A stretch of 53,964 bases of DNA, the filler included, from an uncultured virus (IMG/VR IMGVR_UViG_2061766007_002098) (Duplodnaviria > Heunggongvirae > Uroviricota > Caudoviricetes). It is 4 parts of one record of this genome, joined end to end, with 100 filler letters (N's around TTAATTAATTAA, not from the genome) between each part and the next. Parts side by side here need not be neighbours in the genome. Positions count along the whole stretch, not along the records: positions 43,187 to 53,964 come from IMGVR_UViG_2061766007_002098; 3 more parts are not named here. One strand, written 5' to 3'. Shown here in pieces: positions 3,970 through 53,964 of the stretch. Position numbers and translations under genes: made by a program. Position 1 is the first letter of the stretch. The number at the start of each line of letters is the position of its first letter. The notes below the pieces were generated by a model. It was given only the letters and a program-made list of their open reading frames with translations. It was not told the DNA's origin and did no database searches.

Positions 3970-4173
3970 TCAGGTGTCGATCGCGATTCGGAACGTGTGC
4001 AGCCTTCCATCGTTGTCGTGCAGCGTCTTCGCCATGATGATTTGGCGTGTCGCCGAGATGTGCGTCCACGTCCTTTCGCCTTGCGGAAGCTCGTAGTAGC
4101 CTGTGTTTCCGATGCGGTCCTTGAATTCTGTCTCGTCGACAGACCTGCTGTCGACCGTATAAAGTATGCTCAT
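3970..4173 (-). CDS. hypothetical protein
   Basis: 67-aa ORF with AAGGGG RBS. Confidence 0.55.
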   Translation of the reverse strand: MSILYTVDSRSVDETEFKDRIGNTGYYELPQGERTWTHISATRQIIMAKTLHDNDGRLHTFRIAIDT

Positions 4174-4276
4174 GATATTATCCCCTTTTAAGAAAGTTGC
4201 GGCGTGGCGGACCCATCCGCCCGTTTTGGCTCACTTTCGCGGTCGTGTGGCCCCATGGTTGGCGCCGCCGTAATGG

Positions 4277-4574
4277 TTAGCGGTTTGTATTCCTTGGACC
4301 CCTCGGGAGTCCCTTGTCGGCCCTTGGAGCCTTGTTCGGCGAGCCCTTCGGCCTGCCGCCCTTGCGCCCGTTCTCGGCGCTGGTGCGCTTCTTCAGCTCG
4401 CTCTCGGCTTCCGGCTTGCGCTCCCTGTATTCCTNNNNNNNNNNNNNNNTTCCTTGACCCCTTGCGCCTTCCGGCGAAGCTCGGTGCCAGGCCTTCATCT
4501 ACGGCCTGCGAAATCAGCGCGGACACCTCGTCTCTAGACAGGTCGGTCCCGCAATGTGGACACTTGACTGGCAT
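4277..4574 (-). CDS. small putative DNA-binding protein (CxxC N-terminus, AT-hook-like SAENGRKGGRPKG C-terminus; gap inside)
   Basis: MPVKCPHCG... before the gap and ...TSAENGRKGGRPKGSPNK after it; has its own promoter. Confidence 0.6.
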
Positions 4575-5774: not shown

Positions 5775-6842
5775 CTACAGTTCCGGTATGGCGTCTACCG
5801 CCTTCTTCCTGCCTTCGTCCAGCACCTTCGCGTATATCTGCGTGGTGGTTATCTTCGTGTGGCCGAGCAATTTGGACACGGTGAACAGGTCGGCACCGTT
5901 GCCGAGGGCGAGAGTGGCGAAGGTGTGGCGCGCCACGTGAAAGGATATGCGCTTCGTGATTCCTGCGGCCTTCGCCCATTCGCGAATCTTACGGTTGTGC
6001 CATTCCTCGCACGTGGGGAAGTCGTGGAACACCTTGTCGGAGTCGTTCTCGCGCAGGAACTTCGCGGCGTTCTTGCCGATGGGAACCTGGACGAATTCGC
6101 CCGTCTTGTGCTGCCGTAAAAAAATTACGCCGTTACGGATGTCAGACCACTTGAGGTTGCGCACGTCGGACAGGCGCAAGCCCGTGAAGCAAGAGAACAG
6201 GAACGGGTACGCAACCTTCGGCTCGCAGGGAGTGTCCGACAGCGCACGCAGCTCCTCGATCGTAAGGAAGCACCTTTCCCCGGCCACCTTCGGCGGAACG
6301 AGCCCGGAGAAGTCCGGCACCATCGTTATTATGCCGTCCAGCTTCGCCTTGTGCAGGATGGTCTTTAGCACGTTGGTCTTGGTCAGTATTGTGTTGTTCG
6401 CGTAGCCCTTGGTATCGCGCATCCACGCCACGAGACGGCCGTAGAAGGCGCGGTTTATGTCTACCAGTCGCGCGTGCCTGGAGAACTCCTTGAAGTTGGC
6501 TATCAGTTCCAGACGGGAGTGCCTGGTGCCTTCCGTGCGGCAGGTGGCGGACTCCTTGAGCGCGTAGTCGGTAAACATCACGCTGTGGTCGGACTCCTGT
6601 ACGAACACGCCAAGGTCCGCCTCGTCGAGTTCCCTTGCCTTCTTGCGGGCGTATTCCTCCGCCATTGCAAGCGTGTTGGAATTTGCTATCTTTACGGTTG
6701 CCGACGAACCCGGATTCAGGTATAGGTTCAGAGGTTCTCGTATTCTCTTTCCGTCGATTCTGTAGTTGATCCAAAGGGATTCGGAACCGTCCGCAAGCCT
6801 GCGCCTGAAGACGGTTACACGTTTTCGCGTGACCGGGACCAT
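5775..6842 (-). CDS. int: tyrosine integrase (arm-binding N-domain, SAM-like and catalytic domains)
   Basis: FSCFTGLRLSD (R), K, SFHVARHTFAT (HxxR), LLGH, TTQIYAK (Y). Confidence 0.95.
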   Translation of the reverse strand: MVPVTRKRVTVFRRRLADGSESLWINYRIDGKRIREPLNLYLNPGSSATVKIANSNTLAMAEEYARKKARELDEADLGVFVQESDHSVMFTDYALKESATCRTEGTRHSRLELIANFKEFSRHARLVDINRAFYGRLVAWMRDTKGYANNTILTKTNVLKTILHKAKLDGIITMVPDFSGLVPPKVAGERCFLTIEELRALSDTPCEPKVAYPFLFSCFTGLRLSDVRNLKWSDIRNGVIFLRQHKTGEFVQVPIGKNAAKFLRENDSDKVFHDFPTCEEWHNRKIREWAKAAGITKRISFHVARHTFATLALGNGADLFTVSKLLGHTKITTTQIYAKVLDEGRKKAVDAIPEL

Positions 6843-10405: not shown

Positions 10406-10690
10406 CTATACCGCCCTGCGGATTTCGTCGATTGGAACTATGCGGCGCGATTCCATGTAGGCGTCAAGGTCTTCGCGGCGGAACTTGGTGAACTTCCCGT
10501 CCTTGATGTGCGGAATCTCCCTTGCGCGTACTCGGTCCGCGAGAGAGCGCTCCGTTGTCTTGAGGTAGTCTACCGCCTGTTCGAAAGAGAGATACCGCTG
10601 CTCCGGGTGCATCATCGCGTGCATGGCCTGTATGATGTCGTTGCGCATCTGCTCGATGTCATTGCGCGTTACGAGTTCGTCAGGTGTCAT
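10406..10690 (-). CDS. excisionase-like HTH_17 protein
   Basis: YLSFEQAVDYL...LADRVRAREIPHIKDGKFTKFRREDLDAYM. Confidence 0.8.
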   Translation of the reverse strand: MTPDELVTRNDIEQMRNDIIQAMHAMMHPEQRYLSFEQAVDYLKTTERSLADRVRAREIPHIKDGKFTKFRREDLDAYMESRRIVPIDEIRRAV

Positions 10691-12695: not shown

Positions 12696-12720
12696 TGTGT
12701 TTTCCTTTGTTTTTATGTAG

Positions 12721-12810
12721 GTGGCTGGCGGGGCTCGAACCCGCACGATGCGTTACGCATCCGAGTAGCATAGACTCGCTTTTGCTGCTCTACCGTTGAG
12801 CTACAGCCAC
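12721..12810 (-). ncRNA. tRNA-like RNA with non-canonical anticodon domain
   Basis: Acceptor GTGGCTG/CAGCCAC, D arm GCTC-AACGGTA-GAGC, T arm GCGGG-TTCGAGC-CCCGC; 7-nt insertion before a CGAGT-CTATGCT-ACTCG hairpin. Confidence 0.8.
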
Positions 12811-16460: not shown

Positions 16461-16533
16461 TGCACCACCCAGGATTCGGACCTGGAACCAGCGAGTTATG
16501 AGTCCGCCGCTCTGACCGTTGAGCTAGTGGTGC
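16461..16533 (-). tRNA. tRNA with CAT anticodon (Ile2/Met-like)
   Basis: GCACCAC/GTGGTGC acceptor, GCTC-AACGGTCA-GAGC, GCGGA-CTCATAA-CTCGC, CCAGG-TCCGAAT-CCTGG. Confidence 0.85.
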
Positions 16534-19742: not shown

Positions 19743-20186
19743 TTACTTGATGGAAAGAGTTCGTTCCTTGGGCTTCGCGATGATCACGTCGGGGACGAGT
19801 TCTGCGAGCTTTTCTACCGTCATTCCGGAAGCCTTCGAAATCTGCGAAACGGTGAGCTGCTGGAACAGCTGTGTCTGCGATACGAGTCCGCGTTCGATGA
19901 GGGTGTTCGCCATAATTTCTGCGGCGCCTTCCATCCAGTCGTAGGTGTAGCTCTGCTTGCTCCACTTCATGCCGGCTGGGAGGTCTTCTTCCGTCCCCAC
20001 GTTCATGGTGTGCTTGGTCGCTTCCTTGATGGATGCTGCGGCCTTTTCACACCACGCCTTCAGTTCCCAGTTCTCGCGGATTTCGCCCGCGCGGAGGGCG
20101 CGCTGCTGGATGAATTCGGCTTGCTGTTCATCGCCCATTTCCACGCCGGCGTTCGCAATCATCCACTTGAGGGTGTCTGCGGCTGC
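19743..20186 (-). CDS. recombination-module protein resembling the C-terminal part of DUF2800 (N-terminus in gap)
   Basis: EEDLPAGMKWSKQSYTY...LTVSQISKA...IIAKPKERTL. Confidence 0.55.
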   Translation of the reverse strand, partial: AAADTLKWMIANAGVEMGDEQQAEFIQQRALRAGEIRENWELKAWCEKAAASIKEATKHTMNVGTEEDLPAGMKWSKQSYTYDWMEGAAEIMANTLIERGLVSQTQLFQQLTVSQISKASGMTVEKLAELVPDVIIAKPKERTLSIK

Positions 20187-20633: not shown

Positions 20634-21155
20634 TTACTTGAAGCTCAATGTCCGCTTCTTCGGCTTAGCTACGATCTGGTCGGGGTACATGTCGATGAGC
20701 TTTTCCTTGGTGAGCCCGCTCGCCCTAATTACCGCGTCCACCGAGAGTTCGCACAGCGCAGTGTCGGTGGTGCAGATGCCCTTGCTTTCAAGGTCCTTCA
20801 CTACCTGTACGGAACTGCCGTATGCGTCCCACTCGTAGGTATACGACTGCTTGCTCCAGCTCACCTTCACGCCGTCCTCGCCGTCGGGGAGTTCTTCGGG
20901 CGTGCCGAGGTTGTAGAGGTGTTCGGTGTATTCCTTGATGTCCTTGCAGAGTTTTTCCAAACCCTTGCGGAATTCCGTCAGCTCGCGCATGGGACGGTTG
21001 AGGCCGTTGCGGAGGGAAATCACGTCGGCGAGCGTTTCCTCGTCGAGTTCGATGCCCGCGTACTTCTTCGCGAAGAGGAAGGCGTTCACGGCGCTCTTGG
21101 AGAGTTCGAGGGATCCCAGTTCTGCGGGCGTGGTGAGTACGATTTCGTTAGCCAT
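20634..21155 (-). CDS. DUF2800-C-like paralogue
   Basis: MANEIV...GTPEELPDG...WSKQSYTY...IVAKPKKRTLSFK. Confidence 0.55.
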   Translation of the reverse strand: MANEIVLTTPAELGSLELSKSAVNAFLFAKKYAGIELDEETLADVISLRNGLNRPMRELTEFRKGLEKLCKDIKEYTEHLYNLGTPEELPDGEDGVKVSWSKQSYTYEWDAYGSSVQVVKDLESKGICTTDTALCELSVDAVIRASGLTKEKLIDMYPDQIVAKPKKRTLSFK

Positions 21156-21790
21156 TGTCGGCCTCCTTGTTGATTTCGGCCTGAATGGCCTTGAAAACNN
21201 NNNNNNNNNNNNNNNNNNNNNNNNNNNNNNNNNNNNNNNNNNNNNNNNNNNNNNNNNNNNNNNNNNNNNNNNNNNNNNNNNNNNNNNNNNNNNNNNNNNN
21301 NNNNNNNNNNNNNNNNNNNNNNNNNNNNNNNNNNNNNNNNNNNNNNNNNNNNNNNNNNNNNNNNNNNNNNNNNNNNNNNNNNNNNNNNNNNNNNNNNNNN
21401 NNNNNNNNNNNNNNNNNNNNNNNNNNNNNNNNNNNNNNNNNNNNNNNNNNNNNNNNNNNNNNNNNNNNNNNNNNNNNNNNNNNNNNNNNNNNNNNNNNNN
21501 NNNNNNNNNNNNNNNNNNNNNNNNNNNNNNNNNNNNNNNNNNNNNNNNNNNNNNNNNNNNNNNNNNNNNNNNNNNNNNNNNNNNNNNNNNNNNNNNNNNN
21601 NNNNNNNNNNNNNNNNNNNNNNNNNNNNNNNNNNNNNNNNNNNNNNNNNNNNNNNNNNNNNNNNNNGAGAGAAGACCCTTTTTGCTCGACGGAGCGCGAT
21701 CTTGGCGCAAAGCCTCTGTTTGTCCTTCGCAAGGTTTAGTTCGAAATTGTTATCCATGTTGTGCCTCTCTTTTTGTGTTGTCGTATCCTA

Positions 21791-21829
21791 AATATACAAT
21801 ATCGTGAGCGTATTGTCAATAGGTGAGCG
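21791..21829 (-). promoter_or_regulatory. strong early promoter with operator-like repeats
   Basis: TTGACA-17bp-TATATT; GTGAGCG direct repeats at 21804 and 21823; TATTG-T-CAATA palindrome over the -35. Confidence 0.85.
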
Positions 21830-38564: not shown

Positions 38565-39453
38565 ATGTCTTTATCTACCGAAAAATACGGCTTCATCATC
38601 GATCCTTTCTTCTCTTTCATGGATGAAAAGGGAAATCCTATCAAGAACGGATTCCTCCGCATCTTCCTTGCAGGAAGTTCGACTCCGGCCGTTACCTACT
38701 TGAATTGGGCCGGAGCGATGAACCAGGAAACAATCCAGCTTGACAACTCCGGCCGTTGCTATACCCGCGTAATTGGGGCGAAGGGTACGCTTTACAAGGT
38801 CGTGGTCTATAATATCCTCCACTCCCAGGAAAACCCGCTCCTTACGGTAGATAACGTCCAGGTTATTAGCTCTGCTGCAGATGTTTTAGACGGTTCTGTT
38901 ACAACTCAAAAACTTGCAGACGAAGCTGTTACTGCAGCAAAGCTTCATGAAAGCGCGGTCACAACATTAAAACTTGCAGACGAAGCTGTTACTGCAGCAA
39001 AGCTTCATGAAAGCGCGGTCACAACATTAAAACTTGCAGACGAAGCTGTTACTGCAGCAAAGCTTGCAAATTCTTCTATTTCAGAAAATAAGCTTACAGA
39101 CGATCTTAAATTAAAAGTAATCAAGGACTACGTGACTCCCGAAATGTTCGGTGCCGTGGGTGATGGGGTTGAAGACGATACTCAAAGCGTAACGGCCGCT
39201 GTTGCTTCTGGAAAGAATTTATTGTTGGTTGGAGTGTACAGAATCGCCAGCCTCGTAAAGATTCCTAGAACTTGTAAGGTTTTTAGAACAACAGGGTCTT
39301 TTGCAGTTGACGCCTTTGATACCGATACTCAAACGGGTGGCTGGGTTTTCTTCTCTTACCCCGAATTGCCCGTGACTCCCGAAATGTTCGGTGCGGTAGG
39401 CGACGGAGTGGCAGACGATACGAAGGCCATCCAAAATGCAATAGATGCCAACC
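38565..39453 (+). CDS. tailspike N-terminus (P22 head-binding domain plus repeats)
   Basis: FMDEKGNPIKNGFLRIFLAGSSTP...IQLDNSGR; two VTPEMFGAVGDG..DDT motifs. Confidence 0.8.
38909..39068 (+). repeat. 60-bp coding tandem repeat (KLADEAVTAAKLHESAVTTL)
   Basis: About 2.7 near-identical units. Confidence 0.85.
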
Positions 39454-43506: not shown

Positions 43507-44487
43507 AACCTCGTTCCAGCTCTCCTTTTGACAGAGGATGTCGAATCGTTCTTTTAGGATTTCGGCCGTGCAGTTTTTCGTGATCTTGGAAAGCGGATGC
43601 GCTTCTTCGTATGGTCCGAAATTGAAGGAAGAACCGAGAAGGACCGCCCCAATTGCTGTTGCTTCGAGAAGCTTCAAGTTACTTTTTGCCCGATTGAATA
43701 CGTTATCCTGGAGGGGCGCCAAGTAAAAGTTAGGATTGATGCTTGCGATGGTAGCTGGGAATTCGATCGTAGAGACGTTCTTGTGTACAGTTATCCTTTC
43801 CTTGTATTCCTGCAGGCAATCCGGCACGTTGAAAAGATGCAGATCGATTCGGTCGTTCGCTACGGCGTTCTTTAGCCAAGGGAGCCATGGTCCCGCAAAG
43901 TCGCCGTCCATTCCTTCCCTAAAGTGAGAAGTAGACCCCGCGTAAAGGACTCTAGGCTTGTCAAGGTCACCTCCTACAAGGTGTCTTTCGATATACCCGA
44001 AAAAGAAGCGCGGGACGGCGTTGGGCAGAAGCTTAACGTGCTTCCATCCGAAGCGGTACTCCATGCAGCGCTTGAGCCATTCTGTAGTGACCGTCACCCC
44101 GTCAATGTCTCCGAGGCTGCGTTCCATGATGGCGCCTACGGGCTTCACGTCTATGCGGGTGATATTGTAGGTCGGGATCGTCTGCTTTCCGTCAAGGTCA
44201 AAGACAATATCGTCAAAGTCCGCAAAAATCTTGAAGCCGAAGCGGTTACGCTTGCGTTTGTAGTGCTGGATGAAAGTTTCCTGGTTCTCCGTTGTCGGCC
44301 TAAAAATCACGATCGCGGCGGTGTACTTGAGGATGTAATCGTCGGTGATTTCGGCACGCGAGACTATAACCTCCACGTCGCCGGAACGGCTGGAGCGTAG
44401 CAAGGCTGCCATGGCGTCGCAGCGGTAGAAAGCGCAGGCGCTCTTGTCGGCCGGGTGCAGGATGATTACGTTCTTCTTGATGAACAT
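43507..44487 (-). CDS. GT-B (GT4-like) glycosyltransferase
   Basis: SACAFYR, FADFDD, YAGSTSH, LAPLQDNVFNRAKSNLKLLEA. Confidence 0.85.
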
Positions 44488-44526
44488 TGCTATTCCTCCC
44501 ATGTAATGACGAAATANNNNNNNNNN

Positions 44527-44863
44527 TGGCTCCCCATTCGGTACGGCCTTCACCGATGCGGATTTTCGGGTTCTTGAATTCCAGGCGGCGTTCCTTGTCT
44601 CCGGCTTTCGGGTAGCCGAGGGTAAAGACGAGGCTGTCAAAGTGTTTTACCCATTCACCGCTATTTACGTGACTCTTTACAAAATCCTCAAAGTGAGTCA
44701 TGAAATGCGCGGATTTCGTCGCCGCCACGCAAATTTCGCCGAGGCTGTATTTGAGAAGGCGGCTCGTCCAGTAAGCGCTAGATTCGCGGTACTCTTCTTT
44801 TTTGATTCCGGCCTTGATAAGGTCGAACCATTTCTTTTTAAGTGGTAGTGTTAAGGTTTTCAT
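44527..44863 (-). CDS. ASCH-domain protein (second copy)
   Basis: LTLPLKKKWFDLIKAGIKKEEYRE...FTLGYPK...EWGA. Confidence 0.8.
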
Positions 44864-45599
44864 TTTCCACCTCTAAAGCCACGTAACGGCGAGTGTAAGC
44901 ACGCCTGCGGCTATCCAATAAACAAACATCTTTACATCGCCCTTGAACGCATACGGCACCGCCGCGATAAAATCCAAGGCCATTAAGATCGTAGGGAATA
45001 CTTTCTCCATTAGACAAATTCCCCTTTGCTGTATTTATAAGGTTCTACAACCCGGTCACGCTCGTAGAGAGATTCTCCTTTCCGCCTTCGCTTCATCTGC
45101 TTGGGCGTTAGCTGGTAAAAACCTCTTACAGAGTGCCATTCGTTAACGGGTTTTACCGTATCANNNNNNNNNNCTTGCTGAAATCGTAAGGCTCGACAAC
45201 CCGGTCACGCTCGTATAGCGTTTCGCCTTTTCGCTTTCGCATCATCTGCTTGGGCGTGAGCTGGTGAAAACCTCTTATGGAGTGCCACTCGCTAACGGGT
45301 TTTACCGTTTCATCTGTCGCCATTGTTGACCTCCTTCTTTTCGCAAGCAAGACAGATAAACCGATGTTTCTCCTTATCGAGCCTGCAGTTTTTCATGAAT
45401 CCGCAAACGTCGCAATTCACGTAGTCAAGATAAAGCCTTCTTTTCATTCGGCCACCTTCGGGACTGGTAGTCCGTGCTTGATCCTGTNNNNNNNNNNCGC
45501 AGGAAAGACAGATAAACCGACGTTTCACCTTGTCAAGCCTGCAGTTTTTCAAGAATCCGCAAACGTCACAATTTACGTAATCAAGATAAAGCTTTCTTT

Positions 45600-45962
45600 T
45601 CATTCGGCCACCTTCGGGACTGGTAGTCCGTGCTTGATCCTGTAACGATAGGTGCCGTATTTCATGCCCGTTCTTTTTTCGAAAGATTCCTGCCATCGTC
45701 TCACGTAGGCGGTGACCTTTTGGCGGTGCTTCCGTTGGTATGTCTTGCACTTTCTGTTGTTGGCGGCCTTTCCCTTTGGCGTGTTGCGGTATCGCTTGGA
45801 ACGGCGGCGGGCAAGCTCGCGTTCGTGTGACCGTTTTTCCATGGCCCTTTCGCGCATTTCCGCAGAGGTAGCGCACAACATCGTATCTACGGCGCTAATG
45901 GAGGCGAGGGCGGAACGGCGGCGGGCTTCGGCGTAAATGTCGATTTCTTTTTTCTTCGCCAT
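45600..45962 (-). CDS. basic hypothetical protein
   Basis: 120 aa, Arg/Lys-rich, directly after ssb. Confidence 0.55.
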   Translation of the reverse strand: MAKKKEIDIYAEARRRSALASISAVDTMLCATSAEMRERAMEKRSHERELARRRSKRYRNTPKGKAANNRKCKTYQRKHRQKVTAYVRRWQESFEKRTGMKYGTYRYRIKHGLPVPKVAE

Positions 45963-45971
45963 CTTTCCACC

Positions 45972-46403
45972 CTAGAACGGAAGTTCGTCTTCGTTTTCCT
46001 GCGGCATTGCTCCGGCGGTCTTTTCTTCCTTCGGCGGGTTGCTGTAGTTGTAAGCCGGGGCGCTGTTGGTGCGCGGCGTGAGAATCTGCACCGCGTCGGC
46101 CTGCAGTTCCGCGATGTTCTTCTGCTGTCCGTCCTGGTCTACATAGTTGCGGAAATTCATTTCGCCGGACACGAAAAGGGAAATTCCCTTCCCGATGTTC
46201 AGGTTCGCGATATTCTCGGCCAGCTTGCCGAAACAAACCACGTTGAACCAGTTCGTGATTTCCTTCTGTTCGCCGTTCTTGTCGCGGTACTTTTTCGATA
46301 CTGCGACGGAGAAAAGGACCTTCTGTCCTCCGCTGGGAAGGGTTACGACGGTTGCGGGCTTGCCCGTGTTTCCGATGATTTCAGTTCTGTTCAAGTATGC
46401 CAT
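45972..46403 (-). CDS. ssb: single-stranded DNA-binding protein
   Basis: MAYLNRTEIIGNTGK...NEDELPF. Confidence 0.9.
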   Translation of the reverse strand: MAYLNRTEIIGNTGKPATVVTLPSGGQKVLFSVAVSKKYRDKNGEQKEITNWFNVVCFGKLAENIANLNIGKGISLFVSGEMNFRNYVDQDGQQKNIAELQADAVQILTPRTNSAPAYNYSNPPKEEKTAGAMPQENEDELPF

Positions 46404-46717
46404 TTTGTTTTTTCCTTTTTGTTGATGGTAAATTTTACCCATGGATGATTTTTGCGATAGCGCAAGCGACGGCGACGCAGTAAAAGAGAATGAGAACCAA
46501 GGCCACGATAGCGACGAACCACGTCCAGACATCGTTTACGATCTGGTTGAAAGTCTTCTTTGTCTTCATTTTAACGTCTCTATTATTTTTTTGTAACAAG
46601 CGTTGCAAAGATTGAAATAGTCATAACCATTCTCTTTTGCAACAGTAACAAAGTTTATATCACTAATGTTTGTATCTTTTTTACATTTGGTGCATAAAAA
46701 TTTTCTCATTTTCTGAT

Positions 46718-47140
46718 TCATACTACCTCCTTTTCGATATTGTCGCACACCTTGCGGAGCTTTCTAGACAAATCCTTCTTTCCTTCGGGGTAGTTGTTCA
46801 TGTTCTTGTCATACGGCAACACCGAGTTTACAAACACGTTGTATATGTCTGTTGCGAGGAATTTCGCGCTGTTGCTTCTGTGTATTTGGTGGCACGGTCT
46901 GCACAGAGGGTGTCCGCATCCGTAATCCTTGAACGAGTACGAGAATTCGTAGATTATGAATTCTCCCACGGCGCAAAGTTTAACGCTTACGTAAGAGTGC
47001 GGAATCAATCCTTCGCGGAATTCAAGACAATTATCGGTATACACGCCGCAAGCGTTCTGAATGCCTTCGCCTATTGCGGATAGGCGCCACGGACGGTTCT
47101 GCGGGTCGTCCGCGAATATGTCAAGTTGTACGGAGTCCAT
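46718..47140 (-). CDS. hypothetical protein with N-terminal QLDIF motif
   Basis: MDSVQLDIFAD. Confidence 0.65.
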   Translation of the reverse strand: MDSVQLDIFADDPQNRPWRLSAIGEGIQNACGVYTDNCLEFREGLIPHSYVSVKLCAVGEFIIYEFSYSFKDYGCGHPLCRPCHQIHRSNSAKFLATDIYNVFVNSVLPYDKNMNNYPEGKKDLSRKLRKVCDNIEKEVV

Positions 47141-47150
47141 TTATAAATCC

Positions 47151-48014
47151 TTAACCTTTCTTGAATACCAAAATATTTTGGTGTACCTTTACGAGTTTAC
47201 GTGTTTTCATGTTTCCTTCGGCTCTCATAGAAGCAGAGGCAATAGGGTTCAACAGAATAGCTTCGTTGTAGTAGTTCATTCCGCAATCCATAAATGCCTT
47301 GATAGTGTCCGGCACAAATCCGATATAATTACCATTTTTACCGCGAACCTCTCCGACAACAAAGCAAGCGAAACCGCCCTTTTTGAGTTTAAAACAAGCC
47401 TTCTTTATAATTGATCGATAGGCGACAAGGAAATCTTTGTAATTCATATTTGAAATGTCTCCTTCCAAGTCGCTGTAAACCTCCAAGTCTGCGTAAGGAG
47501 GACAAGAAAAAACGAGGTCGTATTCGCGCACGATTTTGTCCAATACCTTGTTAGAATCTCCGACATAGTAGTTAGGTTGGTTGTCAACATCCAAGATTGC
47601 CTGGGCTTGTTCGCGGTTTGAGTCAATTTGTTCTTGACGAATGTCAATGCCAGTGTAATTATAACCGAGATAATTCGCGACAATTCCGCGAACGGAACCG
47701 CCCGCGAACGGGTCGAGAATATCTCCGTTTTCTGGGCAGAACCACTTGTAAATAACTTCACACAAAGCAGGGTCAAATATTGAAACATAGTCAACAGAAT
47801 TTTTTTCTTTTGCGGTTGTGTCAATGTGGATGCAGGAGGAATCTCGACCTATTTCGGATTTGATTCCCTTCATTTTCCACAAGTTCTTGCGGACTTGCCA
47901 CGGCCCTCTTTTGGTGTCAATTACGCTAAATGGAGGCTCGATGAACTTGTCGCGAAGGATTACATCTTGCTTGACTGGCACGCCGAACAAGTCTACTTGT
48001 TCATACCCCCCCCC
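47151..48014 (-). CDS. alpha-class (N4C-type) DNA methyltransferase (start in gap)
   Basis: SIFDP, ILDPFAGGSVRG (motif I), VFSCPPY (motif IV). Confidence 0.9.
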   Translation of the reverse strand, partial: GGGYEQVDLFGVPVKQDVILRDKFIEPPFSVIDTKRGPWQVRKNLWKMKGIKSEIGRDSSCIHIDTTAKEKNSVDYVSIFDPALCEVIYKWFCPENGDILDPFAGGSVRGIVANYLGYNYTGIDIRQEQIDSNREQAQAILDVDNQPNYYVGDSNKVLDKIVREYDLVFSCPPYADLEVYSDLEGDISNMNYKDFLVAYRSIIKKACFKLKKGGFACFVVGEVRGKNGNYIGFVPDTIKAFMDCGMNYYNEAILLNPIASASMRAEGNMKTRKLVKVHQNILVFKKG

Positions 48015-48042
48015 NNNNNNNNNNCGTATTCTTCGTTGTAAA

Positions 48043-48609
48043 TCATGCGGCCCCCTTCCTCCTCTTGGATTTCTTGTCAATGGCGAATCCTTCCGGCTGC
48101 AATCTGTGGCCTTCCTCGTCATAGTATCCGAGTTGCACGCGCCTCTGGAATACGCTAGGCTGTTCTTTCTTGAGGTTCTGTATGTACTCCTCGTCTGTGT
48201 ATCCAGTCAATCGCAAGTAAACCTTATGGAATTCGTCGGAGTTCATTACTTTCTTTTGAATACATTCCCCGCTATAATGAACGTAGGCATTTATATGCCT
48301 TCCGTCCTTACGTTTCCATGAGTATTCAATCGCGTCTACGTTGCAGATTTCGCGAGCGGTTATGGGCTTCCCACAGCAGAAGCATTCTCCAATAACATCT
48401 TCGTAGTCCACGCGGTCATCTTCGCGGAGGTCGTACCAGTAAATGCCAGCCTTGACAAATCTGTCTACGCACTCGGCCACGTACTCGCGCACGTTGCCTC
48501 TATATTTGGCCCATAGTTCATTGCATATTGCTTCTGCCTTGCGTTCGCAGATAACATGGAGCGGTTCTTCTTCCACGGGTGCGAACATGTCAAGCTGTAC
48601 TGCGTCCAT
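48043..48609 (-). CDS. hypothetical protein with N-terminal QLDMF motif
   Basis: MDAVQLDMFAP, CxxC. Confidence 0.65.
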   Translation of the reverse strand: MDAVQLDMFAPVEEEPLHVICERKAEAICNELWAKYRGNVREYVAECVDRFVKAGIYWYDLREDDRVDYEDVIGECFCCGKPITAREICNVDAIEYSWKRKDGRHINAYVHYSGECIQKKVMNSDEFHKVYLRLTGYTDEEYIQNLKKEQPSVFQRRVQLGYYDEEGHRLQPEGFAIDKKSKRRKGAA

Positions 48610-48700
48610 TTACAAATCCTTAACCTTTCTTGAATACCAAAATATTTTGGTGTACCTTTACGANNNNNNNNNNATGCCTCTTGTTTGATGTTGTAACCTA

Positions 48701-48739
48701 AATATATATTATCGTGAGCGTATTGTCAATAGGTGAGCG
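48701..48739 (-). promoter_or_regulatory. second copy of the strong early promoter/operator
   Basis: Near-identical to 21791-21829. Confidence 0.85.
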
Positions 48740-48789
48740 AAAAAAAATCGCAACCACCCATTATGGCTGGACGGTGCGACCAGTTTTTT

Positions 48790-48840
48790 TTACTTCTTGG
48801 GCGGTTTCTTTCCGCCTTTCTTCTTGCCACCGCAAGCCAT
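48790..48840 (-). CDS. 16-aa basic micropeptide MACGGKKKGGKKPPKK
   Basis: GGAGG RBS, ATG...TAA, followed by a hairpin and T run. Confidence 0.6.
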   Translation of the reverse strand: MACGGKKKGGKKPPKK

Positions 48841-49305
48841 AGGGCCTCCTTGGTTGAGGGTTTTACAAAAGGTTCTCCAGGGGTAGCGCCTTCTTTGTCG
48901 GAACTATACCAATCTAGTTTTTTATCCCGCCAAGAGGCTCTGGTCGGTTCTTACGGAGAAATCTACGAGCAACCCTGGAGCGCCGGAGCCATCGTTCGTT
49001 CAGGCGTCCGGCCTTTTAAATTTTTCCCTGCAGAAAAGCCGCTTATAGAAGAAGAAAACTGAAACGAGTCACGTCTTCGCCGCAGGGTTTCCCCCGATCG
49101 TTCGGTCACGGGGAGAAAATCACCTTCTAGTCCCTGTCATTGTCGATAAGGTCGATAATTCGAGCCTGCAAAGCCTTCTTGTAAGCCTTCATTGCGGCAA
49201 GCTGTGCAGGCCAGAGAGCTTTCGCGGATGCGTTTACGCTGGCGGGATCGGCCGCAATGGCGTTNNNNNNNNNNGATCGTTCGGTCACGGGGAGAAAGTT
49301 ACCTT

Positions 49306-49513
49306 CTAGTCCTTGTCATTGTCGATAAGGTCGATAATTCGAGCCTGCAAAGCCTTCTTGTAAGCCTTCATTGCGGCAAGCTGTGCAGGCCAAAGAGCTT
49401 TCGCGGATGCGTTTACGCTGGCGGGATCGGCCGCAATGGCGTTNNNNNNNNNNAGTTGGAATCTTCGCCTGTTCCTGGCAGAGCTGGCCGATGTTTTCGC
49501 AAGTATCACCCAT
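49306..49513 (-). CDS. crAss001_48-like small protein (gap inside; duplicate 3' end at 49127-49264)
   Basis: QLAAMKAYKKALQARI motif. Confidence 0.5.
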
Positions 49514-49559
49514 AATTTATTCCTTTGCCTTTCCTGGCGGTTTTTGATTGTGAATTGTC

Positions 49560-49628
49560 GCCCTCCGGGCGGTGAAAGTTAGGGGAGCATTATACCCTTG
49601 TGTTGTGGTAAAATGCGGCCCGGAGGGC
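49560..49628 (-). ncRNA. 69-nt hairpin RNA, copy D
   Basis: GCCCTCCGGGC...GCCCGGAGGGC stem, CAACACAA loop, CCCCTAA; starts 5 nt after tRNA-Ser. Confidence 0.65.
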
Positions 49629-49633
49629 TTTAG

Positions 49634-49715
49634 CGGAAGATGAAGGACTCGAACCTTCAAGCGGTAACCCGCGACTCTTTAGCAAAGAGTTTCCTTACCA
49701 TTAGGTTAATCTTCC
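49634..49715 (-). tRNA. tRNA-Ser(GCT)
   Basis: GGAAGAT/ATCTTCC, ACTCT-TTGCTAA-AGAGT, variable arm, GAAGG-TTCGAGT-CCTTC, G73. Confidence 0.9.
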
Positions 49716-49810
49716 ATGGGTGCGGCCTTTTACTGTCGCGGTGCCGAACCAATTCTTCCGCGGGATGTTGTTTTAGAGAGTAGCGCTTTTGACCACATCC
49801 AAAGCTCTAG

Positions 49811-49887
49811 AGGGGTTCCCGGACTCGGACCGGGCGGAGGCTAAAAGAGACACAACAACACGCACTCCGGCAAAGCCTGCAACCCCT
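49811..49887 (-). ncRNA. 77-nt tRNA-mimic RNA with a 20-nt antisense-like loop
   Basis: AGGGGTT/AACCCCT, CCCGG-TCCGAGT-CCGGG, mini D hairpin, GGAG/CTCC stem. Confidence 0.75.
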
Positions 49888-50007
49888 TGTGGACTACTTG
49901 ATGGTAAGAGTCCTTTCCTTCGGCTTGATGACGATGCCTTCGTGGAAGAGTTCCAGCATCTTGTCGGTGGTAATGCCAGCGGCCTTGATCATGGCGGNNN
50001 NNNNNNN

Positions 50008-50326
50008 CGTCGAAATCGTCCGAGCCGTCAATCATGAAAAGGGCGCAAAGGGCGTACTTTCGGGCGTAGCTGCTGCACGCTCCAGTAAGCTGCGCCGGGT
50101 CCATGCCCGTTTTGGTGTCCTGTTCGCGCGCCCAACCCTGCGCGGAGAATTCCTTTTCGCCGATGTAGAGCTTCGCGGTGGCAACCACGTAGAAGCGCCC
50201 CTCGGTGTAGCGGACTTCGTCGGTCAAAACGAGGTCTACGCCGAATTCGTCAAGGACGGGCTTTACCGCCTCGTAGATGTCTTCAGCGCTGCGGTAGTTG
50301 TACTTGCCGAACGTGTTCTTGTTTTT
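50008..50326 (-). CDS. erf: Erf-family single-strand annealing protein (fragment)
   Basis: FGKYNYRSAEDI...GMDPAQLTGACSSYARKYAL. Confidence 0.85.
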
Positions 50327-50336
50327 NNNNNNNNNN

Positions 50337-50621
50337 AGTCTCGAATCCGTCGTAGTTCGGGTTCATTTCGGCGCGCTTGAGGTACACCTCGTAACCGGTG
50401 ACGATGCTCATTACGGTGCCTCCTTCCTTGTTCTTGTAGGTGGTGGCGTAGATTTCGCGCTTGAAGGGGTTGAGCCCGAAAGCCTGAGCTACTGCCGCAA
50501 ACTGGTTGCGCTGCACGTCCGTGAGCTTGTCGGTGAGGGTGGCGAAGTAGTCGTTGAGGAGCTTCGCCGTGATTTGGTTCTGTTCTGTGACGGTTGCAAC
50601 CGCGTTGTTTTGTTGTTCCAT
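50337..50621 (-). CDS. bet: Bet/RecT allele, N-terminal fragment
   Basis: GLNPFKREIY; near-identical to 53095-53381. Confidence 0.8.
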
Positions 50622-50941
50622 GTTATGCCTCTTTTTTAGTGTTGTTTTCTGGTTCGAGATAAAGTGAAGCGTGGTCCCTGTTCCAGGCGTACTTGATGGC
50701 GTCGCCCATTGTCATGACTCCGACAAGTTCACCGTCCACATAAGTGATGAAAAGTTTATCCATTGACCACCTGCCTTTCGCGGAGTTCCCGGAGTCTGCG
50801 GGCTTCGGCTTCGTTGATTTCGGTTTCCTGTTTCACGGCATCGTCGAAGAGTTCGCAATAGATGTCGAAATGAAGGAGCATTTCTTCAAGGTCGGACTTG
50901 TCGATTTTCTGCAAACGTCCAGCCTTGAGCANNNNNNNNNN

Positions 50942-51279
50942 TGCTGCCTGCTGCCTAGAAGCTGGAAGGTGAAGCACACGATCTCGGTCATGTCGTGGCG
51001 GATTCCGGCGTTGTCGTTCCATGTCCTGTAGCTGATTTCGCCTTCGAGGTATATTGGAGTGCCTTTCTTTACTCCGCACTTTTCGAAGCTCTCGGCGCTC
51101 TTGCCTGCGATGCGGATGTTATGCCATGAGGTCTCCTCTTTCGTCTCGCCGCTGGCGTCGCGGTACTTCTTGCTCGTCGCCACGCTGAACTGCACCACCT
51201 TGCCGCCGTTGTTGAACTGTCGAACAACCGGGTCCTTTCCGATGTTACCGACGATGATTACCTTGTTTACGCTTGCCAT
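50942..51279 (-). CDS. ssb: single-stranded DNA-binding protein (C-terminus in gap)
   Basis: MASVNKVIIVGNIGKDP...IYLEGEI. Confidence 0.9.
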
Positions 51280-51461
51280 TGTATTACCTGCTGTTTAACC
51301 TTGTCTTTCTTCGTTGGCACTATGTGCGCCTTATGCCCTTCATACCCGTGCCGCGCCGCCCACTGTTCCAGCGCATACACCATGCGGTATGCCTGGGAAC
51401 GTCTGCCGAACTTGGAGCCGACTATCGACGCGGCGGGGTATTTAAGGGGGCGCTTCATTGT

Positions 51462-51971
51462 CTACTTGATTGTGAGTGTTCGTTCCTTCGGCTTGATCTC
51501 GATGCCGTCGTGGAAGAGCTCCAGCATCTTCTCGGTGGTGATTCCTGCGGCCTTCTGCATTCCGTTCACTGTCACCATGTCGAAGAGCTGCTCCTTGGTA
51601 GTGAGGCCGGAGTCGATGAGGCTCTGTGCGATAACACGGGCCTGACCTTCCTCGAAGGCGTAGGTGTAGGACTGCTTGCTCCACTTTACATTCGCGGGTA
51701 GATCCTCTTCGGTTCCCACGTTGTAGGTGTGCTTGAGCGCTTCCTTGATGGAGGCGGCGGTCCTTTCCATCCACTTTTGGACTTCCGCCAGCTCGCGGAA
51801 CCCTTCGTTCTTGGCGTTGCGCTGCGACACGAATTCCTGTTCCGCGCCTTCGTCCATCTCGATTCCTGCGTGGGCGATGGCGAAGCGGTAGGCGTCCATG
51901 GCCTTTTCGCTCGGTACGAGCATCTGCTGCATTTCTTCCGGAGTTACGATCATTACTTCCTTGCTAGCCAT
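51462..51971 (-). CDS. DUF2800-C-like protein
   Basis: GTEEDLPANVKWSKQSYTY...IEIKPKERTLTIK. Confidence 0.6.
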   Translation of the reverse strand: MASKEVMIVTPEEMQQMLVPSEKAMDAYRFAIAHAGIEMDEGAEQEFVSQRNAKNEGFRELAEVQKWMERTAASIKEALKHTYNVGTEEDLPANVKWSKQSYTYAFEEGQARVIAQSLIDSGLTTKEQLFDMVTVNGMQKAAGITTEKMLELFHDGIEIKPKERTLTIK

Positions 51972-52127
51972 AGTCAGTCCTTCCTGTTGCCGATGATGAT
52001 GTTGGATGTGATTTCGATTGTAGATTGCGTGGAGCCGTTTTCCCTGGCCTCGATGATCTTCTTCTGGATAAGGAAGTAGGCTTTGTCGTTTACTCGCACG
52101 TTGTGCGGGACTATTAGTCTTGGAGCC

Positions 52128-52466
52128 TTATCCATTGTCGGCCTCCTTGTTGATTTCGGTTTCGTTCATTTCTACCGGATTCTTTACGGCTTCGGTGAGG
52201 TCGGCCAGCAATCTGCTGCGGCCTGCGGAGGTTTTCACGTCCATGACGCTTTTGAGCGCCGCCTTTTCGAGAAACGCGTCGAACGCTTCCGGATTCTTTT
52301 CTCGGATGTCGTCGCACATCTTCTTCCAGTTGGCGTCCTTTTCGTCCTGGGTCTTCGCGGCCTTCGGCGGTTCGGGCTGTGCCACGGGTGCTGCCTGCTG
52401 CACTTCGGTGTACCCTTGCTGTTCCAGCTTGTCGGCTCCGGTCATGTGTTCGGGGAGTTCGTCGTT
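52128..52466 (-). CDS. Bet allele, C-terminal fragment with a different tail
   Basis: Identical to the 52566 gene up to AAKTQDE, then diverges. Confidence 0.7.
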   Translation of the reverse strand, partial: NDELPEHMTGADKLEQQGYTEVQQAAPVAQPEPPKAAKTQDEKDANWKKMCDDIREKNPEAFDAFLEKAALKSVMDVKTSAGRSRLLADLTEAVKNPVEMNETEINKEADNG

Positions 52467-52565
52467 NNNNNNNNNNGGGCGATGGCGAACCTGTAGGCGT
52501 CAATGGCCTTCTCGGACGGGACGAGGTTCTTCATGTCTTCTGGGGTTACAATCATTACTTCCTTA

Positions 52566-53381
52566 CTAGCCATTGTTGGCCTCCTTTTCTTCGAAGTCGA
52601 TGGTGGACTTCAGTTCGGTGTAGAGTTTCCGCCGGTCCTTGCTGCCCTTGATCTCGGCAAGGTCAGGCACGTTGTGCTGCTTCATGTAGTTGTCGAAGAT
52701 TTCCGGGTTGCGTTCGCGCAGCTCGTCGCACATGGCGAGCCAGTTGGCGTCACGCTCGTCCTGGGTCTTCGCGGCCTTCGGCGGTTCTACCTGTGCCACG
52801 GGCGCAGCCTGCTGCACTTCGGTGTAGCCCTGCTGTTCCAGCTTGTCGGCTCCGGTCATGTGTTCGGGGAGTTCGTCGTTCGTGTACGGCATGCCTCCGA
52901 AGTCGGTGGGGAAGGCGCGGCGGAACGCCGTGGCGATAGCGACCTTCTCCAGCATCATGCGGGGCTTGGTCGCCCAGAGCGAGCGCCCGGTGGAGTATTC
53001 TGCCATCCACACGGTAGACGTGATGGGCATGCGGCGGTCCTTGCGGTACACCTTGCAGGTGCAGTTCATCTGCTTGTCCACTACGTTGAATTCCGTCTCG
53101 AATCCGTCGTAGTTCGGGTTCATCTCGGCGCGCTTGAGGTACACCTCGTAACCGGTGACGATGCTCATGACCGTCTGTCCGTCCTTGTTGCGGTAGGTGG
53201 TGGCGTAGATTTCGCGCTTGAATGGGTTGAGGCCGAAAGCCTGCGCGACTGCCGCGAACTGGTTGCGCTGTACGTCGGTGAGCTTGTCGGTGAGGGTGGC
53301 GAAGTAGTCGTTGAGAAGTTTCGCCGTGATCTGGCTCTGTTCGGTGACGGTTGCCACCGCGTTGATGTTGTTCTGTTCCAT
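52566..53381 (-). CDS. bet: Bet/RecT single-strand annealing protein
   Basis: GLNPFKREIY, CTCKVYRKDR, W..KPRMMLEKVA...FRRAFP. Confidence 0.9.
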   Translation of the reverse strand: MEQNNINAVATVTEQSQITAKLLNDYFATLTDKLTDVQRNQFAAVAQAFGLNPFKREIYATTYRNKDGQTVMSIVTGYEVYLKRAEMNPNYDGFETEFNVVDKQMNCTCKVYRKDRRMPITSTVWMAEYSTGRSLWATKPRMMLEKVAIATAFRRAFPTDFGGMPYTNDELPEHMTGADKLEQQGYTEVQQAAPVAQVEPPKAAKTQDERDANWLAMCDELRERNPEIFDNYMKQHNVPDLAEIKGSKDRRKLYTELKSTIDFEEKEANNG

Positions 53382-53417
53382 AGTTGTTGTCTCCGTTTCG
53401 GTTGTTGATAAGTTGTG

Positions 53418-53666
53418 TCAATTGTTGACAGGATTGTTGTAAGCCTTGTGATACCATTCCTGCCATGCGGCTTCGCGCTGGTCTGCGAGGCTCTTCCATA
53501 TTTCGAGGTCGCGTACTCCGCAGTCGAAAAGTATGCTCCTGACGGCGTCTGGTCTTTCGCGGAACGCGTTGTATAAGATCCTTGTCAGCTTCTCCTGCTT
53601 TTCTTCGCATTCCCTGACAAGCCTATTCCAGCGTTCCGATTCTGTCTCTGTCCTGGTCTCACTCAT
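53418..53666 (-). CDS. hypothetical protein
   Basis: 82 aa upstream of bet. Confidence 0.55.
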   Translation of the reverse strand: MSETRTETESERWNRLVRECEEKQEKLTRILYNAFRERPDAVRSILFDCGVRDLEIWKSLADQREAAWQEWYHKAYNNPVNN

Positions 53667-53809
53667 GATTCACCTTCCTTAGTCCGTTATAGTTTTGATG
53701 GTCGCACGAGTAGCAGAGCATGCGCCTGCCGTCCCTCCTGCAATACTTGTGCAGCCCGCACACCGTGCACGTTGCATACTCGCTGAAGTCCTTGTGGAAC
53801 GCTACCATG
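53659..53809 (-). CDS. small Zn-finger protein
   Basis: CTVC...C...CYSC; similar to the small ORFs at 45310-45603. Confidence 0.5.
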
Positions 53810-53964
53810 CGCAATCCACCCATCCGGCGAGAACGAAGACGCCTAGAAGCAGCGCGGCAAAGAGCCAGGGGGCGAGCCTGTCGAGAAGCCACTGGCGGNN
53901 NNNNNNNNTAGCAATTCTTCAAGGTCGGACTTGTCGATTTTCTGCAAACGTCCAGCCTTGAGCA

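Follow-up and report, generated by a model that had tools for sequence, protein, structure and literature searches.

A tRNA-shaped RNA gene of 77 nt, named T1, was found on the minus strand at positions 49811..49887 of the window, that is, the whole analysed stretch of 53,964 nucleotides (filler included) from an uncultured virus of the Caudoviricetes (IMGVR_UViG_2061766007_002098). T1 is very probably a real, conserved, tRNA-derived RNA element: its cloverleaf-like fold, its modular conservation, the complementarity of its large loop to a leader cassette in a fixed register, and the co-occurrence of the element with this cassette were all observed. On sequence grounds, we also propose, tentatively, that this loop could act as an antisense regulator of the leader cassette.

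Fold and conservation of T1

Read along the minus strand, T1 begins with the 5' strand of the acceptor stem (49881..49887), whose partner is 49811-49817 and whose pairs 1-6 are formed in 6/6 distinct sequences, followed by a mini hairpin of 3 bp with a loop of 3-4 nt, which replaces the D arm in the RNAalifold consensus (49869..49878). The 5' strand of the former anticodon stem (49862..49868, with one bulged U, invariant in 6/6 sequences) pairs with 49836-49841 to give a 6-bp stem, closing a U/G-rich loop of 20 nt (49842..49861), which is the segment proposed as antisense from its pairing with leaders. One linker base joins this arm to the T arm (49818..49834), made of 5 bp and a 7-nt loop with C at its second position, and the 3' strand of the acceptor (49811..49817) is followed by CTAG, with encoded CCA absent. 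Letters and arms agree with the fold and coordinates given in the first-pass annotation of this DNA.

T1 is not a decodable tRNA. As in the tRNA family (RF00005), its acceptor of 6-7 bp stacks directly onto a T arm that has a 5-bp stem and a 7-nt loop, and it lies among true phage tRNA genes with a CTAG-type trailer and, like its neighbours, no encoded CCA. This acceptor/T-arm half is kept, whereas the D arm, the 7-nt anticodon loop and a variable region of at least 4 nt have been lost, their places being taken by the 3-bp mini hairpin, a loop of 18-20 nt and the 1-nt linker. ARAGORN did not call T1 in standard or mitochondrial mode or with introns of 0-60 nt allowed, and gave only nonsensical overlapping calls under relaxed thresholds, while an Rfam search on 49500-50100 showed no tRNA match either at the gathering threshold or at E<=10. 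A tRNA with a short intron was rejected on the same silence of ARAGORN, and we know of no bacterial pathway for short tRNA introns of that kind. A tmRNA, or a piece of one, was also discarded, as the ARAGORN tmRNA search over the window was empty and T1 is too short for a tag frame. The thermodynamic z-scores of T1 are unimpressive (-0.3 to -1.75); the own MFE structure of the window copy, with z only -1.75, is not the cloverleaf, and in the commoner 75-nt form the cloverleaf is either the MFE structure or the RNAalifold consensus.

The set of T1 relatives comprised nine records with six distinct sequences, from rumen metagenomes and phage contigs and including the window. An IMG/VR contig (L010), reached through an ERF-protein query, carries T1 at 95% identity, and a scan of metagenomes with a T-arm/acceptor pattern yielded eight T1 loci; the handles L116, L010 and G009 denote the same contig, which is 31.3 kb long, has direct terminal repeats and is 100% complete by the record's estimate. 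In the eight further records, T1 is ~95-100% conserved while the flanks differ, and the similarity starts and stops at the acceptor stem. At least three different upstream contexts (either the stop of a gene or a hairpin-containing spacer of ~100 nt) and two to three different downstream ones (either of two unrelated sequences) were distinguished, and the T1 stretch was seen in cattle gut and rumen metagenomes of 13 studies.

RNAalifold applied to the six sequences returned the cloverleaf-like fold of the first-pass annotation as consensus. At acceptor pair 2, G2-C71 is replaced by U2-A71 in L010, a compensatory change, with G-C in the other five sequences; acceptor pair 7 is U-A in two of the six and a C.A mismatch in four (U7/C7 vs A66). 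The mini hairpin exists in three variants, with varying loop letters and a single one-sided change (C-G to U-G) that preserves pairing, and a contig variant from run X16 shows C73 changed to U (G5.U73) together with two T-loop changes that restore the canonical loop. The tRNA-like scaffold of the original proposal is thus conserved, as a discrete module across differing flanks, with a compensatory acceptor change and an agreeing consensus fold. For the former anticodon stem, invariant in the six sequences, covariation neither supports nor contradicts the pairing. The loop measures 18 nt in the other eight records, where a 'TA' is absent, so that the 20-nt length is peculiar to the window; contigs from public runs carry the same 2-nt deletion. 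Loop variation consists of G/U at position 1 (L120) plus this 2-nt indel at the 3' edge, and the 14-nt pairing core shows zero substitutions, which is not significant given the estimated ~10 variable sites in 75 nt.

T1 could instead be a decaying tRNA pseudogene, a recombination scar or an attachment-site remnant, functionless now, as would agree with the absence of any call by tRNA programs, the C.A mismatch at acceptor pair 7 in four of six sequences and the high mosaicism of the region. However, this leaves unaccounted for the sharp boundaries, the 95-100% conservation over different flanks, the compensatory acceptor change and the tRNA-like T-loop variants, and we consider it improbable. 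No host tRNA shares the 3' part of T1, the 22-23-nt T-arm/acceptor pattern giving 0 exact matches across 185,579 species, each represented by one genome; in the viral contig collection, 0 matches were likewise obtained with exact and degenerate forms of such patterns. The specific idea of an attachment site copying the 3' half of a host tRNA was rejected, given these 0 exact host matches and the lack of an integrase match in the complete carrier G009. The integrase of the window is located 43 kb away from T1, in a patchwork scaffold.

The window contains 63 N runs, mostly of 10 N, and near-identical pieces in tandem, each of them closed by an N run. These pieces are 85-98% identical and arranged head to tail (for instance, 49096-49274 vs 49275-49453 and 45342-45487 vs 45498-45643), and larger modules are duplicated too, such as the RecT N-termini at 50338-50607 and 53095-53364. 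By its sequence, the window looks like a scaffold of phage-population variants, in which gene order across N runs would be unreliable. T1 lies on one contiguous piece of 544 nt (49454-49997) together with a true tRNA-Ser(GCT), 95 nt downstream and recognised by ARAGORN and Rfam (49633..49715, minus strand), and both leaders lie on other pieces; T1 and leaders are found together in the complete contiguous relative G009. Among deposited phages, the sequence search matched the tRNA-Ser part only, and megablast of 44000-53964 gave no match.

Immediately upstream of T1 is the 3' end of a gene (49894..49997, minus strand), with its stop 6 nt before the element, encoding a C-terminal module shared by genes associated with annealing proteins. 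This module of ~31 residues ends four genes on the minus strand with 60-86% DNA identity (19743-19835, 20634-20726, 49894-49986 and 51462-51554), and recombination proteins may share it as a partner-binding tail.

Complementarity between the loop and a leader cassette

The claim that the T1 loop pairs with two early leaders was confirmed, as both pairings comprise 15 contiguous pairs (15/15), two of them G-U, and end on the A of ATG. One leader precedes a RecT-family N-terminal ORF, 'bet' (50621..50635, minus strand), and the other precedes the first gene behind a strong promoter (21757..21771, minus strand). The two had been presented as different leaders; both sites do pair, but they are paralogous copies of one cassette and, consequently, not independent. 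The promoter stated to lie before the second leader is also present, in the form of a sigma-70-like module TTGACA-17-TATATT at 21791..21819 (minus strand, repeat family D20), and another copy of the module with the start of a third leader cassette was located at 48674..48729 (minus strand), truncated by the N run 48664-48673. As for 'bet', it is a fragment corresponding to the N-terminal part of a RecT-family gene, and the window also contains, elsewhere, a full RecT-family allele preceded by a different leader.

The cassette occurs in one to three copies per phage, behind copies of the strong promoter and before the annealing-protein gene, this being of RecT type (window) or ERF type (G009) alike. 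In L116, two TTGACA-17-TATATT promoters, each matching at 11/12 positions and embedded in a duplicated 67-nt module, are each followed by a leader that ends in the cassette and ATG, and a third copy of the cassette precedes the ERF gene; T1 itself closes the first operon, preceded by ERF and a 173-aa gene, and no promoter-like site was found directly before it. A search for the cassette motif, allowing only transitions at five positions, detected it in 7/9 T1 records and in 0/113 loci without T1, and the promoter module was found only in T1 loci. The cassette is missing from the T1 records L118 (3.3 kb) and L121 (1.1 kb), and the complementarity between loop and leader likewise recurs in seven of the nine records. 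This co-occurrence may simply reflect shared descent. The motif was also considered as a leader on the opposite strand, an option that was rejected because no ATG follows it there.

In G009, the best two duplexes of the T1 loop among ~31,000 sense-strand windows correspond to the leaders directly behind the two promoter copies (-20.1 and -19.4 kcal/mol), the ERF leader ties for third-best, and these top three leader duplexes share one register, ending at the A of ATG. Shuffle tests were run on the loops and leaders of L116, L120 and G009, not on the 20-nt loop of the window. Leader by leader, shuffled loops equalled the observed energy in 0-6 of 1000 cases, with 1, 4 and 6 on the three L116 leaders. 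When the best of all candidate leaders was taken, the observed value was reached by 19/1000 shuffles in L116 (41 candidate leaders) and 8/1000 in L120 (45), both for 8-kb loci, and by 32/500 in the whole of G009 (162 candidate leaders), where at least five leaders at or below -15 kcal/mol were obtained by 40/500 shuffled loops. Whole-strand tests on loci were not significant, with 50-163/1000 shuffled loops reaching the observed score, and neither was a crude ungapped whole-genome score (558/2000); these scores fail because the U/G-rich loop pairs widely once G-U is allowed, as illustrated by the 16-nt run and several 14-nt runs that it also forms elsewhere in the window. The objection that shuffled U/G-rich loops would pair equally well is, thus, answered in part: the leaders themselves beat the shuffles (1-6/1000), but the excess becomes modest when the search space is taken into account.

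Cassette variation among records is limited to three internal, pairing-neutral transitions and one edge transversion that breaks the terminal pair. As the T1 lineage is shallow and these variants are uninformative, the loop/leader covariation named as a check in the first-pass annotation cannot be shown, for any U/G loop tolerates the cassette transitions seen. A longer inverted repeat between T1 and the leader was sought and not found, the complementarity being confined to the loop. Apart from this, positions 12-24 of T1 (mini hairpin and stem) show a Watson-Crick match of 11-13 nt to a coding site in L116, L119, L120 and L123, reached by 4-30/200 shuffles and probably due to chance.

Other elements in the tRNA slot

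In related phages, the slot of T1 is occupied by a true tRNA (Ser, Met or Thr) or by an ARAGORN-negative tRNA-like element. These other elements, named T2 to T5 in addition to some oddities, have in common a canonical T arm, an acceptor stem that still pairs and the CTAG trailer, the latter following 15/15 of the tRNA-like elements compared. Counted by position, since MAFFT misaligned the 5' ends, both partners differ across slot types at acceptor pairs 1, 2, 4, 5 and 6 and at the first two T-stem pairs, with pairing maintained. In this slot, tRNA genes thus give up the decoding half and retain the acceptor/T-arm minihelix.

The type T4 element, present in six records, carries a U-rich loop of 14-16 nt on a 6-bp stem. 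In four of the five contigs with enough flank, the best site for this loop is a GGAAAATGAACAA-type leader located 0.57-1.08 kb downstream, two contigs forming 14-15 Watson-Crick pairs and the variants that carry one loop change forming 10+3; whole-contig shuffles reached the match in 5-12/2000 cases (G004) and 0/2000 (G005). The target motif occurs only in loci of this type, and its leader is also a cassette, preceding different genes in different contigs. In the T4-type contig G008 (28.8 kb, 73% complete), no target was found and another gene module occupies that place. Type T4 is an independent parallel to T1, with another loop and another leader under the same logic. Its loop keeps CAU at the centre, opposite the AUG of the target leader, and this suggests a path from an AUG-reading tRNA-Met to an RNA masking the AUG and its surroundings. 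Regarding the leader itself, in L101, L113 and L126 it holds a mini frame of four codons whose stop overlaps the start of the downstream gene, and in L095 its first AUG opens an out-of-frame ORF of 24 codons.

No significant leader complementarity was detected in the flanks examined of nine other tRNA-like elements (T2, T3, T5, L002, L003, L091, L093, L057 and L097). Further ARAGORN-negative elements were recorded in L002 (4192-4285), L003 (5607-5709), L091 (134 nt), L093/L108 (59 nt), L057 (60 nt), L097 and L112. The L002 element is read by ARAGORN as tRNA-Arg(CCT) only if a 20-nt 'intron' is allowed, and one 59-nt element has acceptor, D and T arms and no anticodon arm. The elements of L095, L102, L096 and L002 show a C.A mismatch at acceptor pair 1, the hallmark of bacterial initiator tRNA.

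In addition, a conserved non-coding segment follows the tRNA or tRNA-like genes in 26 IMG/VR loci (L090-L115 at ~2501-2520; L116 at 4025-4316). It consists, in this order, of a hairpin with a four-base loop and 5/6 covarying pairs, an invariant stretch of ~33 nt, variable hairpins and a boxA-like motif, and its length, between the element and the leader of the next gene, is ~0.5 kb in the single locus where it was measured. No copy of this segment was found in the window, and its assignment to ROOL/GOLLD was rejected, given the absence of an Rfam match in L010 and L011.

These slot elements bear on another reading of T1, that of a relic tRNA kept as a processing signal or in some other tRNA-like role, with an incidental leader match; the acceptor/T-arm minihelix would serve as an RNase P/3'-nuclease site that punctuates the early transcript or ends a neighbouring RNA, while the middle drifts. 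It agrees with the occupation of the slot by true tRNAs (Met, Thr, Ser) or by five or more other ARAGORN-negative elements sharing only acceptor and T arm, followed by CTAG, with the location of many of them before the conserved structured segment, with the lack of complementarity to any leader in most slot types, and with genome-wide statistics of T1 that are compatible with chance at the 6-28% level. However, T1 is not tied to the conserved segment, which does not follow it in the window, L120 or L122. The relic reading also leaves unexplained why the top two duplexes of a 31-kb genome extend from the Shine-Dalgarno sequence to AUG behind its two strongest promoter matches, and why an independent, statistically strong match exists between the loop and leader of type T4. 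We regard it as the main rival, less likely than the antisense role.

The antisense role of T1 is plausible but tentative; placement, register, co-occurrence and the type T4 parallel support it. For the original proposal of a tRNA-scaffold antisense repressor, the scaffold, the complementarity, its register and the co-occurrence with the cassette held up, whereas the loop statistics are modest and no covariation came to its aid. More speculatively, though still as a possibility worth stating, rumen phages could harbour a family of anticodon-arm-swapped tRNAs, natural tRNA-scaffold riboregulators with an exchangeable antisense loop that matches their own early leader cassette. Two types would fit this family so far, namely, T1 with the AAGAGGCAYAACA-type leader and type T4 with the GGAAAATGAACAA-type leader.

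Proposed role, known systems and further tRNAs

We infer the following sequence of events for T1. T1 would be transcribed as the last part of the early operon, behind the annealing-protein genes, and would then be excised in the manner of a tRNA, with RNase P and a 3' tRNA-processing nuclease making the cuts. The processed RNA would build up as a stable species, and its loop would then pair over ~14-15 nt with the cassette, from the Shine-Dalgarno sequence to the start codon; both the annealing-protein gene and the first gene after every copy of the strong early promoter are headed by this cassette. Such pairing would reduce translation, resulting in negative feedback or in a timed shut-off of early genes. 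With respect to expression, the single RNA-library contig on this stretch covers the tRNA-Ser part only, and the only raw RNA run had 0 reads on the stretch, which is no test of T1 expression.

The first-pass annotation had offered either RNA-based immunity or early-gene feedback as the purpose of this repression. A tyrosine integrase is encoded in the window at 5778-6842, and another one in a 95%-complete relative. In G009, the complete T1 carrier, no match to a tyrosine integrase or to a serine recombinase/resolvase and no lysogeny genes were found. The immunity option is, thus, weak, and given a carrier without integrase and a T1 without a promoter of its own, feedback within the early operon is the better guess and fits better than lysogenic immunity. 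As for the accompanying remark that no CI-like gene is visible, no CI/XRE-type repressor was recognised among the ORFs scanned by Pfam/PHROGs, but many ORFs are unassigned and parts of the window are masked; an HTH_17 protein is encoded at 10409-10690.

The small phage RNAs that come closest in function are C4 of P1/P7 and CI of P4, C4 being of comparable size and directed at a ribosome-binding region. Like them, T1 would be a short phage RNA of similar size, lying within the operon that it would control and exposing a loop complementary to a ribosome-binding region; the likeness is a functional analogy only. Membership of T1 in the C4/CI family finds no backing, as no Rfam match appeared around T1 at E<=10 or in L010 and L011 at E<=1, Rfam being a collection that includes the C4 antisense RNA family. 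Unlike C4, T1 possesses an acceptor stem of 7 bp and a genuine tRNA T arm, a single large loop instead of two, and targets both upstream and downstream of itself, and its complete carrier shows no lysogeny genes. In the relevant part of a review (PMC11143913, citing Hartmann et al. 1995), C4 is described as a documented RNase P substrate.

The arrangement of T1 also resembles laboratory designs. In the engineered tRNA scaffold, a functional RNA is grafted in place of the anticodon arm, and the tRNA body provides processing and stability. The same design principle is apparent in T1, the tRNA-scaffold and external guide sequence (EGS) molecules being laboratory constructs. The EGS concept for RNase P is presented in a section of the same review (PMC11143913). 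An EGS pairs through its acceptor-like part so that RNase P cuts the target, whereas T1 would pair through its loop, and cleavage of the target is not implied. Among natural RNAs, phage T4 species 1 and 2 are small stable RNAs of unassigned function, encoded among phage tRNA genes and with tRNA-like ends. They are likened to T1 by description, and no antisense targets are known for them. Searches of open full-text literature brought up no description of a tRNA-shaped antisense RNA against phage leaders.

Finally, T1 could be a tRNA mimic acting on proteins, as a decoy or inhibitor of tRNA-targeting defence or of tRNA-handling enzymes, or as a tagging or primer-like RNA. Anticodon nucleases can be countered by phage tRNAs and their mimics, and such a role would suit the preservation of the acceptor/T-arm half with loss of the decoding parts, as well as the presence of several odd tRNA-like genes in these phages. 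However, the data give no hint of a protein partner, one would expect an anticodon-nuclease decoy to retain an anticodon-like loop, which T1 does not, and no defence or counter-defence gene was identified beside it, so we give this role little credence.

If the pairing of T1 with its leaders is functional, the element would be a natural counterpart of the engineered tRNA scaffold and a second, unrelated route to the RNase P-linked antisense control of P1/P4, with tRNA genes recycled as regulators. It would also explain the frequent 'broken' tRNAs in phage tRNA clusters, which annotation pipelines skip. Short and easy to test, the loop/leader pairs of T1 and type T4 could find use as orthogonal translational switches. 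Should the pairing prove incidental, there is still a hot spot in uncultured rumen phages where tRNAs decay into conserved acceptor/T-arm minihelices.

Other unusual features were noticed along the window. At 12720-12810 (minus strand), ARAGORN reports a 91-nt tRNA-??? in which an 8-nt loop holds an anticodon of four bases (cgag) and the variable arm is long; it scores 43.8 bits with the Rfam tRNA model and could be a frameshift-reading or a degenerate type II tRNA. A true tRNA-Met (59.4 bits) at 16461-16533 (minus strand) has C at the second position of its T loop, like T1, and in the close relative L001 the tRNA-Met carries the usual T there. Three tandem repeats with a spacing of 60 nt are located at 38872-39065 (plus strand), inside a tail-fibre-like gene of 878 aa.
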